Assembly (NCBI RefSeq): GCF_045037415.1
Contig: NZ_CP173438.1
Direction: 5' to 3' (one strand)
DNA length: 64,000 nucleotides
Origin: Escherichia coli
Lineage (GTDB): Bacteria; Pseudomonadota; Gammaproteobacteria; Enterobacterales; Enterobacteriaceae
Positions 36,001-39,000 of the stretch are shown piece by piece (the first letter of the stretch is position 1; every line of letters starts with the position of its first letter). The position numbers were made by a program.

Positions 36001-39000
36001 CGCAAGGCCGATGCGCTGTATATTCTTGGCGATCTGTTTGAAGCCTGGATCGGCGACGACGATCCCAACCCACTTCATCACCAGATGGCCGCAGCGATCA
36101 AAGCGGTATCCGATTCCGGCGTTCCCTGTTATTTCATTCATGGCAACCGTGATTTTCTGCTCGGCAAACGCTTTGCCCGTGAAAGCGGCATGACGTTATT
36201 GCCGGAAGAAAAGGTGCTCGAACTTTATGGTCGTCGGGTGTTGATTATGCATGGCGACACGCTGTGCACCGATGACGCGGGTTATCAGGCTTTTCGCGCC
36301 AAAGTCCACAAACCCTGGCTGCAAACGCTATTCCTCGCCCTGCCGTTGTTTGTGCGCAAACGCATTGCCGCGCGAATGCGCGCGAACAGTAAAGAAGCCA
36401 ACAGCAGTAAATCGCTGGCGATCATGGACGTTAACCAAAACGCGGTGGTCAGTGCGATGGAAAAACATCAAGTGCAATGGCTGATCCACGGGCATACCCA
36501 TCGCCCGGCGGTGCATGAACTTATCGCCAATCAGCAACCTGCTTTTCGCGTGGTACTGGGTGCCTGGCATACAGAAGGTTCGATGGTGAAAGTCACGGCG
36601 GATGACGTTGAGCTAATCCATTTTCCTTTCTGACCACGAATGGACAGATTCTGAAAAAGCACCGAACTAACGCAACCTGTATATCTTTTTTAAAATCAGC
36701 AAGGTAATAATCTCTGAGTGAAATAACAACAGGGAATATTATTATGCAACGCTGCAACGGATTTTTGATTTCTGGCATCGCCCTTACGGCAGGAGCGCCA
36801 CTGTGTATTAGCTGGTTCGGTCTTGTCGGCTTCTATTTTGGCGCATTGTCACTGGTAGCTGCGGCGGTCATTTCCTGGATAGTCTATTTCTGGCTCATTT
36901 ATTTAGTACTCACCCGCCCCCATAACCAACGCTTTGTAGAAAGATATATATTGATTGTCGGTATATGCTTTTTACCGTGGAGCATTGTGCTGATATGGGC
37001 ATTCTTTGCCAGTTCAGCCAGAGCGCATAATCAACACGCAGAACAAATTAAAAACTCAACAACTGACGGTTAATTCCGCCTACGCAACCGTTTTCCTAGC
37101 ACTCTTTCCGTGCTATTCTCTGTGCCCTCTAAAGCCGAGAGTTGTGCACCACAGGAGTTTTAAGACGCATGTCTTCCCGCAATAATCCGGCGCGTGTCGC
37201 CATCGTGATGGGGTCCAAAAGCGACTGGGCTACCATGCAGTTCGCCGCCGAAATCTTCGAAATCCTGAATGTCCCGCACCACGTTGAAGTGGTTTCTGCT
37301 CACCGCACCCCCGATAAACTGTTCAGCTTCGCCGAAAGCGCCGAAGAGAACGGTTATCAGGTGATTATTGCGGGCGCAGGCGGCGCAGCGCACCTGCCTG
37401 GCATGATTGCCGCCAAAACGCTGGTGCCGGTGCTGGGCGTGCCAGTACAGAGCGCCGCACTGAGCGGTGTCGATAGCCTCTACTCCATCGTACAAATGCC
37501 GCGCGGCATTCCGGTGGGTACGCTGGCGATTGGTAAAGCTGGCGCGGCAAACGCGGCGTTACTGGCAGCACAAATTCTTGCGACTCATGATAAAGAACTG
37601 CACCAGCGTCTGAATGACTGGCGCAAAGCACAAACTGATGAAGTGCTGGAAAACCCGGACCCGCGAGGTGCGGCATGAAACAGGTTTGCGTCCTCGGTAA
37701 CGGGCAGTTAGGCCGTATGCTGCGTCAGGCAGGCGAACCGTTAGGCATTGCTGTCTGGCCGGTCGGGCTGGACGCTGAACCGGCGGCGGTGCCTTTTCAA
37801 CAAAGCGTGATTACCGCTGAGATCGAACGCTGGCCGGAAACTGCATTAACCCGCGAGCTGGCGCGCCAGCCGGCCTTTGTGAACCGCGATGTGTTCCCGA
37901 TTATTGCCGACCGTCTGACTCAGAAGCAGCTTTTCGATAAGCTCCACCTGCCGACCGCACCGTGGCAGTTACTTGCCGAACGCAGCGAGTGGCCTGCGGT
38001 GTTTGATCGTTTAGGTGAGCTGGCGATTGTTAAGCGCCGCACTGGTGGCTATGACGGACGCGGTCAATGGCGTTTACGCGCCGCTGAAACCGAACAGTTA
38101 CCGGCTGAATGCTACGGCGAATGTATTGTCGAGCAGGGCATAAACTTCTCAGGTGAAGTGTCGCTGGTTGGCGCGCGCGGTTTTGATGGCAGCACCGTGT
38201 TTTATCCGCTGACGCATAACCTGCATCAGGACGGCATTTTGCGCACCAGCGTCGCTTTCCCGCAGGCCAACGCACAGCTGCAGGCGCAAGCTGAAGAGAT
38301 GTTGTCGGCGATTATGCAGGAGCTGGGCTATGTGGGCGTGATGGCGATGGAGTGTTTTGTCACGCCGCAAGGTCTGCTGATCAACGAACTGGCTCCGCGT
38401 GTGCATAACAGTGGGCACTGGACGCAAAACGGTGCCAGCATCAGCCAGTTTGAGCTACATCTGCGGGCAATTACCGATCTGCCGTTACCGCAACCAGTAG
38501 TGAATAATCCGTCGGTGATGATCAATCTGATTGGTAGCGATCTGAATTATGACTGGCTGAAACTGCCGCTTGTGCATCTGCACTGGTACGACAAAGAAGT
38601 CCGTCCGGGCCGTAAAGTGGGGCATTTAAATTTGACCGACAGCGACACATCGCATCTGACCGCGACGCTGGAAGCCTTAATCCCGCTGCTGCCACCGGAG
38701 TATGCCAGCGGCGTGATGTGGGCGCAGAGTAAGTTCAGTTAACCTGGTGCTCATTTGATTGCCGGATGCGGCGTGAACGCCTTATCCGGCCTACCGTTCC
38801 AACACCGCCTGTAGACCTGATAAGACGCACCAGCATCGCATCAGGCATGGTGTGCCGATTGCCGGATGCGGCGTGAACGCCTTATCCGGCCTACCGTTCC
38901 GACACCGCCTGTAGACCTGATAAGACGCGCCAGCATCGCATCAGGCATGGTGTGCCGATTGCCGGATGCGGCGTGAACGCCTTATCCGGCCTACCGTTCC

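Follow-up and report, generated by a model that had tools for sequence, protein, structure and literature searches.

Two questions are raised by the spacer between lpxH and purE in some strains of Escherichia coli: does the DNA found there encode a protein, and did it arrive recently or has it long belonged to the locus? We address both for a 64,000-nucleotide stretch of E. coli assembly GCF_045037415.1 (contig NZ_CP173438.1), hereafter the window. On its plus strand, lpxH (35911..36633), the gene for UDP-2,3-diacylglucosamine diphosphatase, and purE (37169..37678), both placed by the list of open reading frames (ORFs) and by the RefSeq annotation of an identical genome, are separated by 535 bp (36634..37168; ORF list and direct sequence reading). 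The G+C content of this spacer is 0.42-0.46, compared with 0.53-0.61 in the flanking genes. Within it lies a small ORF on the same strand (36744..37073, including the stop), which begins with ATG at 36744, ends with TAA at 37071-37073, and encodes 109 residues.

An original prediction, made from the sequence alone, had placed the spacer and the ORF at exactly these coordinates, and its description of an AT-rich spacer and of a product with three hydrophobic segments was borne out by the base composition and the hydropathy profile. We confirm its observation and find partial support for its interpretation. We show herein that the reading frame is under purifying selection. Taken together, the ORF list, the RefSeq annotation, the ratio of nonsynonymous to synonymous divergence (dN/dS), a bias of differences toward third codon positions, and 101 homologues make it very probable that 36744..37073 is a genuine gene for a 109-residue, three-helix inner-membrane protein, a member of an uncurated family of the Enterobacteriaceae.

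A reading frame under purifying selection

The length of the ORF is in itself weak evidence of coding, because frames of at least 109 codons were obtained in 39 of 2,000 shuffles of the spacer (2%). It is the comparative evidence that lifts the ORF far above chance. In all pairs of five Escherichia species, dN/dS was 0.05-0.29 for the ORF, 0.03-0.10 for lpxH and 0-0.05 for purE. The differences that separate the window from E. fergusonii fall at third codon positions in 24 of 31 cases (P = 6e-7), and the corresponding counts are 23/35 for E. albertii and 15/20 for 'E. whittamii' (a name used here as the sources of that protein label it). The synonymous divergence (dS) of the ORF, lpxH and purE between the window and a second species was 0.42, 0.23 and 0.05, respectively, for E. 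fergusonii; 0.34, 0.22 and 0.28 for E. albertii; and 0.15, 0.24 and 0.14 for E. marmotae. The ORF has therefore diverged at synonymous sites to the same order as the flanking genes, as expected under vertical descent within the genus.

The arrangement of the locus recurs in other species. By exact-sequence look-up, a 109-codon ORF was found ~110 nucleotides (nt) after lpxH and 95 nt before purE in E. fergusonii, E. marmotae and E. whittamii. An LpxH search of genomes, one per species, located the gene in the type strain of E. albertii, and a 109-codon ORF of 45% identity between lpxH and purE in Klebsiella grimontii. A 112-residue copy (locus tag P4G33_05750) lies in the same slot in K. pneumoniae, most strains of which apparently have the gene, and Klebsiella sp. 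141161 carries two tandem, diverged copies of 113 and 112 residues between lpxH and purE (L090 2501-3189; also L091 and L092). These three are the Klebsiella in which the lpxH-ORF-purE slot was seen. The homologues of K. pneumoniae, K. grimontii, K. oxytoca, K. michiganensis, K. aerogenes and other Klebsiella are all named 'hypothetical protein'.

A profile search retrieved 101 proteins, which come from Escherichia, Leclercia, Phytobacter and at least nine species of Klebsiella. A Pfam domain is absent from all of them, and the naming sources mostly call them hypothetical or uncharacterised membrane proteins. Full-length members have 107-113 residues, and at every locus read the order was lpxH-ORF-purE, or one flank of it on short contigs, the neighbours in all loci being ppiB, lpxH, purE and purK. 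Across genera the length, the start codon, an AGG-type Shine-Dalgarno sequence 8-10 nt upstream of the start, residues W45, Y48, F49 and Y53, a loop motif, an L-P-W triplet and a terminal D-G are all conserved. The window ORF has the family length and three helices, the loop motif, the L-P-W triplet, and the slot on the strand of lpxH and purE. Judged from its sequences, the family appears to be an uncurated small membrane protein restricted to the Enterobacteriaceae. The Klebsiella homologues share with the window protein the slot, the three-helix layout, a T-R-P-H-D-x-R-F-V loop, L-P-W, the D-G end, and a stop codon 8-9 nt before the PurR box. However, their identity to it is only 31-50%, their N-terminus differs (MQKWSQPLIWG versus MQRCNGFLISG), and one Klebsiella species has a tandem pair.

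These data bear directly on the view that the ORF is non-functional, either a decaying relic, as the original prediction had envisaged in its neutral insertion relic, or a chance frame in a spacer that is kept for other reasons. While the yield of the shuffled spacers, the many E. coli that do without the ORF, and the interrupted, deleted and frameshifted variants described below all speak for such a view, it does not account for frame-specific purifying selection together with third-position bias, for the retention of length, start codon, Shine-Dalgarno sequence and motifs at 31-50% identity across genera, or for the occurrence of the exact window protein on at least 1,000 contigs. Purifying selection contradicts a neutral relic, and we regard a non-functional ORF as very improbable.

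Two alleles of the locus in E. coli

In K-12 (strain CJ236), the lpxH-purE spacer has 117 bp and is free of genes, in agreement with the original prediction. The same ORF, annotated in K-12, would have counted against that prediction, and this is not what is seen. The window and K-12 are collinear through the stop codon of lpxH, and again from the PurR-operator-like 16-mer ACGCAACCGTTTTCCT (37082) on. Between these two points the window has a segment of 448 nt (36634..37081, plus strand), which we call the long allele, where K-12-type E. coli has 30 unrelated nucleotides. A query made from the K-12 junction gave an unbroken match in genomes with the short allele and two pieces lying 418 bp further apart in genomes with the long allele; among the matches listed, the locus has two alleles.

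The long segment with its ORF is present in 1,021-1,025 of 5,426 complete E. coli genomes (~19%). The difference between strains that had been predicted is thus real, but the gene is not strain-specific. Carriers include UTI89, ATCC 25922 and NRG 857C, and the short form, without the ORF, is found in K-12, strain C, EDL933 and IAI39, the last of which is presumably of phylogroup F. IAI39 also has an IS3-family element immediately upstream of the locus, in the interval from cysS to ppiB (L099 3128-4341). Nor is the ORF unannotated, as had been supposed. RefSeq lists it as WP_001188440.1, 'hypothetical protein', at the same position in genomes 100% identical to the window; the UTI89 allele is WP_001188438.1, likewise a 'hypothetical protein'; and the UniProt entry for the E. 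fergusonii homologue (ATCC 35469, CAQ88112.1), which is 94% identical and in the same slot, reads 'Membrane protein'. The existence of the gene is therefore already on record, and the database records carry no function, family or literature.

The gene is dispensable. Most E. coli are without it, and broken copies occur: in E. coli S9 (NZ_CP107122.1), where this region otherwise matches the window at 100%, an IS1 element lies inside the ORF (L003 1345-2447); in one variant from E. marmotae an in-frame deletion has removed residues 46-79; and several variants have frameshifts, some of which are probably assembly errors. In E. coli PSUO2 (NZ_CP011915.1), the last 104 bp of the ORF are joined directly to entC, with purE downstream (L101 3001-3104); this junction reflects either an assembly error or a large rearrangement that broke within the ORF.

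Which of the two alleles came first? The long form is probably ancestral in Escherichia, and the short form would have arisen within E. coli. This is the simplest order of events, because the long allele is present in every other Escherichia species examined. The short allele would have been produced in E. coli by deletion or by recombinational replacement, and would then have spread.

Several observations weigh against this order. The 30 nt of the short allele have no significant alignment with the long allele; the best local alignment is to the 5' end of the ORF, and its score was reached by 120 of 500 shuffles, so that the K-12 spacer could not be derived as a deletion scar of the long allele and either mechanism, deletion or replacement, may have operated. 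Citrobacter, Enterobacter, Kluyvera and others, too, most commonly have a distance of ~30 nt from the lpxH stop to the PurR box. Allele polarity is read from phylogenetic distribution only, and, since the 30 nt cannot be aligned and a short spacer is common elsewhere, replacement by recombination or repeated gain may have produced the present pattern. The named carriers UTI89, ATCC 25922 and NRG 857C, which are few, are all strains that we take to be of phylogroup B2. Finally, in a metagenomic Enterobacter/Lelliottia-like contig (L088, 899-1061), the ORF is followed by a leftover of ~40 nt of an lpxH 3' end (...PEGVGMIAFPF*), beyond which comes the native spacer of that lineage, typical of Lelliottia and Leclercia. 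This leftover is the footprint of a cassette gained by recombination, and the cassette can thus move.

The flanks of the window diverge from those of K-12 or IAI39 to an ordinary degree, except that the final 20 nt of lpxH hold five differences; two of them occur in both allele types (UTI89 has them), and three match the long allele of E. albertii. The idea of a divergent haplotype was rejected, the flanking divergence being otherwise ordinary.

The original prediction had suggested instead that a small strain-specific insertion may encode a membrane peptide, for example of the toxin or phage-exclusion type; read in this way, the segment would be a recent and selfish arrival. The segment is indeed AT-rich relative to its flanks and absent from K-12, a cassette has been gained by recombination in at least one other lineage (L088), and an 8-bp sequence, ACGCAACC, which forms the left half of the PurR box, is found close to either edge of the extra segment, at 36670-36677 and at 37082-37089. 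The upstream copy, however, is not conserved, E. fergusonii having ACGCTATC and K. grimontii also differing, and by our own estimate a chance repeat of this kind is expected in 535 bp. For lack of conservation in these two species, we do not treat the repeat as a target-site duplication; it probably arose by chance. Neither integrase and transposase genes nor inverted repeats were seen, the searches of PADLOC and PHROGs yielded no match and no significant match, respectively, no copy was obtained on a phage or plasmid, and the same slot is occupied in five Escherichia species (four besides E. coli) and in many Klebsiella, with flank-like synonymous divergence of the order that separates species. 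Furthermore, a product of 109 residues and three helices is unlike the short single-helix type I toxins. The distribution of the gene largely refutes the notion of a recent selfish insertion, to which we assign hardly any probability.

Predicted protein, expression and role

A Kyte-Doolittle profile (19-residue window) gave three hydrophobic stretches at residues ~7-32, ~35-56 and ~67-89. Stretches 1 and 2 are separated by a two-residue turn, and stretches 2 and 3 by the polar loop TRPHNQRFVE. AlphaFold, run on alignments of 11 and of 34 sequences, placed helices at residues 6-32, 35-57 and 62-107, with a mean predicted local distance difference test score (pLDDT) of 63 both times. Hydrophobic helix 1 corresponds to 36762..36839, and agrees with the first AlphaFold helix. 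Helix 2 (36846..36911) carries the conserved residues W45, Y48, F49 and Y53 of the family alignment. Next comes the loop (36912..36941), whose motif, T-R-P-H-(D/N)-x-R-F-V, contains the nearly invariant columns T57, R58, P59, H60, R63 and V65. Helix 3 (36942..37010) holds the conserved L-P-W. The C-terminal tail, residues 90-109 (37011..37070), is hydrophilic and variable and ends in D-G. All of these features lie on the plus strand. In the window protein, TRPHNQRFV forms residues 57-65 and LPW residues 77-79, and these columns are near-invariant in the 34 sequences.

By charge count, the positive charges are found at the N-terminus and in the loop that joins helix 2 to helix 3. The positive-inside rule therefore suggests a topology in which the N-terminus and this loop are cytoplasmic and the C-terminal tail is periplasmic.

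With respect to expression, a Shine-Dalgarno-like AGGGA (36731..36735, plus strand) precedes the ATG by 8 nt, and an AGG/AAGGA block is kept at this place in all genera. No plus-strand sigma-70 consensus was found upstream of the ORF in E. coli, K. pneumoniae or K. grimontii, the sole sigma-70-like match in the window overlapping the start codon, and no terminator-like hairpin was found between lpxH and the ORF, or between the ORF and the purE promoter, in the same three species. Because a promoter consensus upstream and terminators on either side are thus missing, the ORF is probably transcribed as the last cistron of a ppiB-lpxH unit, whose transcripts may run on into purEK.

Two further elements flank the ORF on the plus strand. 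Upstream, a non-coding motif, GATTCTGAAAAA (36647..36658; consensus (A/T)ATTC(C/T)GAAA(A)), is kept in all long alleles, i.e. in Escherichia, Klebsiella and contig L088. It sits 13-25 nt past the lpxH stop in three or more genera (L004, L009, L041, L088, L090, L093, L096 and L100), and the remainder of the lpxH-ORF spacer cannot be aligned between genera. A hairpin between UUUUC of lpxH and the conserved GAAAA was considered and rejected, the folds of the single sequences being weak, with energies of -0.1 to -8.8 kcal/mol and z-scores near 0. An Rfam search of 36400-37400 at E <= 1 gave no match. Downstream, the 16-mer ACGCAACCGTTTTCCT (37082..37097) belongs to the purEK promoter, starts 8 nt past the ORF stop, and is kept in every genus examined; from established knowledge of the purEK operator, we take it, as the original prediction did, to be the PurR box. 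In every long allele, the ORF stop lies 8-9 nt before this operator.

Could the segment, then, act mainly in cis on the purEK promoter and PurR operator, by read-through from ppiB-lpxH-ORF or by an altered upstream promoter element, with the protein being secondary? The fixed distance of the stop from the operator in every genus, the want of a predicted terminator between the ORF and purE, and the conserved non-coding motif after lpxH would all fit. But the short allele is likewise without an obvious terminator after lpxH, so that read-through is not a property of the long allele only, the two alleles have the same core promoter and operator, and selection at the level of amino acids would be left unexplained. 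A role mainly in cis thus seems improbable, and the preferred reading remains that of a membrane protein.

As for what such a protein does, the small bacterial membrane proteins characterised so far mostly bind to larger proteins of the membrane. By analogy, the dispensable product of this gene would contact a larger envelope protein within the membrane by means of its helices, rich in aromatic residues, and its conserved loop, predicted to be cytoplasmic. A non-enzymatic accessory role is favored because the loop between helices 2 and 3 is the only conserved polar surface. We put this mechanism forward only tentatively. The AlphaFold model is of low confidence (pLDDT 63, predicted template modelling score 0.33), and a literature search found no paper that mentions the gene. 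A functional link between the family and one of its constant neighbors strikes us as rather improbable: in the membrane, the product might anchor or modulate LpxH, a peripheral enzyme of the lipid A pathway, or it might form a small oligomeric carrier connected with the purEK step. If true, such a link would explain why a single slot has been kept since before the split of Escherichia and Klebsiella, and why lineages that lost the gene may compensate elsewhere.

The importance of the gene is modest. Its product is an uncharacterised membrane protein whose presence varies between lineages, encoded at a core locus in two major pathogens, and nothing points to a novel type of system. The gene is nonetheless carried by clinically dominant E. 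coli lineages (UTI89, ATCC 25922 and the window-identical genomes), it provides a two-allele marker at a core locus, and it makes a small and tractable target from a family with no curated model.

The junction between lpxH and purE is also occupied in other ways. Across genera, its cargo includes a YdgH/BhsA-like gene, a GNAT acetyltransferase, MiaE on the opposite strand, a DUF2534 membrane protein and a 2-kb DUF1848 insert, at loci L020, L026, L028 and L031 (Lelliottia, Enterobacter, Huaxiibacter and Leclercia), L022 and L034 (Siccibacter), L055-L058 (Rahnella), L032 and L081 (Pluralibacter and a relative), and L019 and L029. Many genera have a bare spacer of ~120 bp. The junction is a recurrent site for small cargo genes across the Enterobacteriaceae, a minor point of genome architecture. 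Further downstream, between purK and a carbamate kinase gene (38757-39263), there are five tandem copies of a 100-bp unit, 96% matching. This array looks like a bacterial interspersed mosaic element, because the unit holds palindromes that resemble repetitive extragenic palindromic sequences; it gives rise to a series of spurious ORFs of 35-37 residues on both strands.

Comparison with known systems

Searches of Pfam, NCBIfam, PADLOC, PHROGs and PDB sequences, made with the window protein alone and with each of 11 family members, returned nothing significant. No colicin or microcin immunity family was among the Pfam matches of the 11 members at E <= 0.1, no PADLOC defence model matched any of them at the same threshold, and the best PHROG E-value was 0.0036, to an unnamed family and for 2 of the 11. 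Among 50,697 phages no homologue was found, and among 72,556 plasmids none except a mislabelled Klebsiella chromosome. The latter entry, K. pneumoniae 'plasmid unnamed2' (CP125156.1 in PLSDB), is evidently a chromosome, since it has 5.37 Mb and carries cysS, ppiB, lpxH, purE and purK. Beside the ORF, no gene for a toxin, lysis protein, integrase or transposase was seen, and no partner gene. The toxin, immunity and phage-exclusion types that had been suggested originally are thus without positive support, as are holins and carriers, and the product is most likely not an autonomous toxin or defence module.

Among these types, the main alternative to an accessory protein is an orphan immunity-type protein against a pore-forming bacteriocin (of the colicin E1/Ia or microcin E492 type), kept without its toxin gene. 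The immunity proteins of this group (E1/Ia and MceB type) are small inner-membrane proteins of ~95-115 residues with three helices, so that size and layout are alike, as is a patchy distribution among strains, seen here as a presence/absence polymorphism within E. coli. Fast change between genera (45% identity, compared with 82% for LpxH and 90% for PurE) and the tandem diverged paralogues of Klebsiella sp. 141161 would also suit an immunity protein. On the other hand, sequence similarity to the known immunity families is lacking, no true plasmid or phage homologue exists in the collections searched, and no toxin, lysis or export gene is nearby. The ORF, moreover, occupies a single fixed slot in the core genome, and its dN/dS, well under 1, does not suggest an arms race within Escherichia. 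We consider an orphan immunity protein unlikely, if less so than the other alternatives to an accessory protein.

Another candidate is a three-helix transporter or channel that would assemble with itself, as the dimeric SemiSWEET sugar carriers do. Foldseek against the PDB gave nothing below E = 5, and the top-ranked match was a SemiSWEET (E = 5.1, probability 0.21, 40 aligned columns), obtained with the low-confidence model. While size, helix number and the conserved aromatic residues in the helices are in keeping with such a carrier, the fold match lacks significance, Pfam gave no MtN3/PQ-loop match, and a PQ motif is not visible in the alignment. Thus, a SemiSWEET-like carrier is scarcely to be expected.

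Type I toxins are usually peptides of fewer than 60 residues with a single membrane helix and an antisense RNA. The window product, with 109 residues and three helices, does not conform to this pattern, and the Rfam search mentioned above found no such RNA family, a result that leaves room for an undescribed antisense RNA. Class I holins have three helices, as does this protein, but it has no phage relative and lies in a housekeeping-gene context. AcrZ, MgtS and MgrB, which act by binding larger membrane proteins, are alike in being short, hydrophobic and non-enzymatic, with membrane helices and a short polar segment. They differ in having 30-50 residues and one helix, compared with 109 residues and three helices, and they share no homology with the ORF product. 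By sequence the protein belongs to no described family; by its form it resembles the small accessory or immunity-type proteins of the inner membrane, although it showed none of the membership features tested for them.

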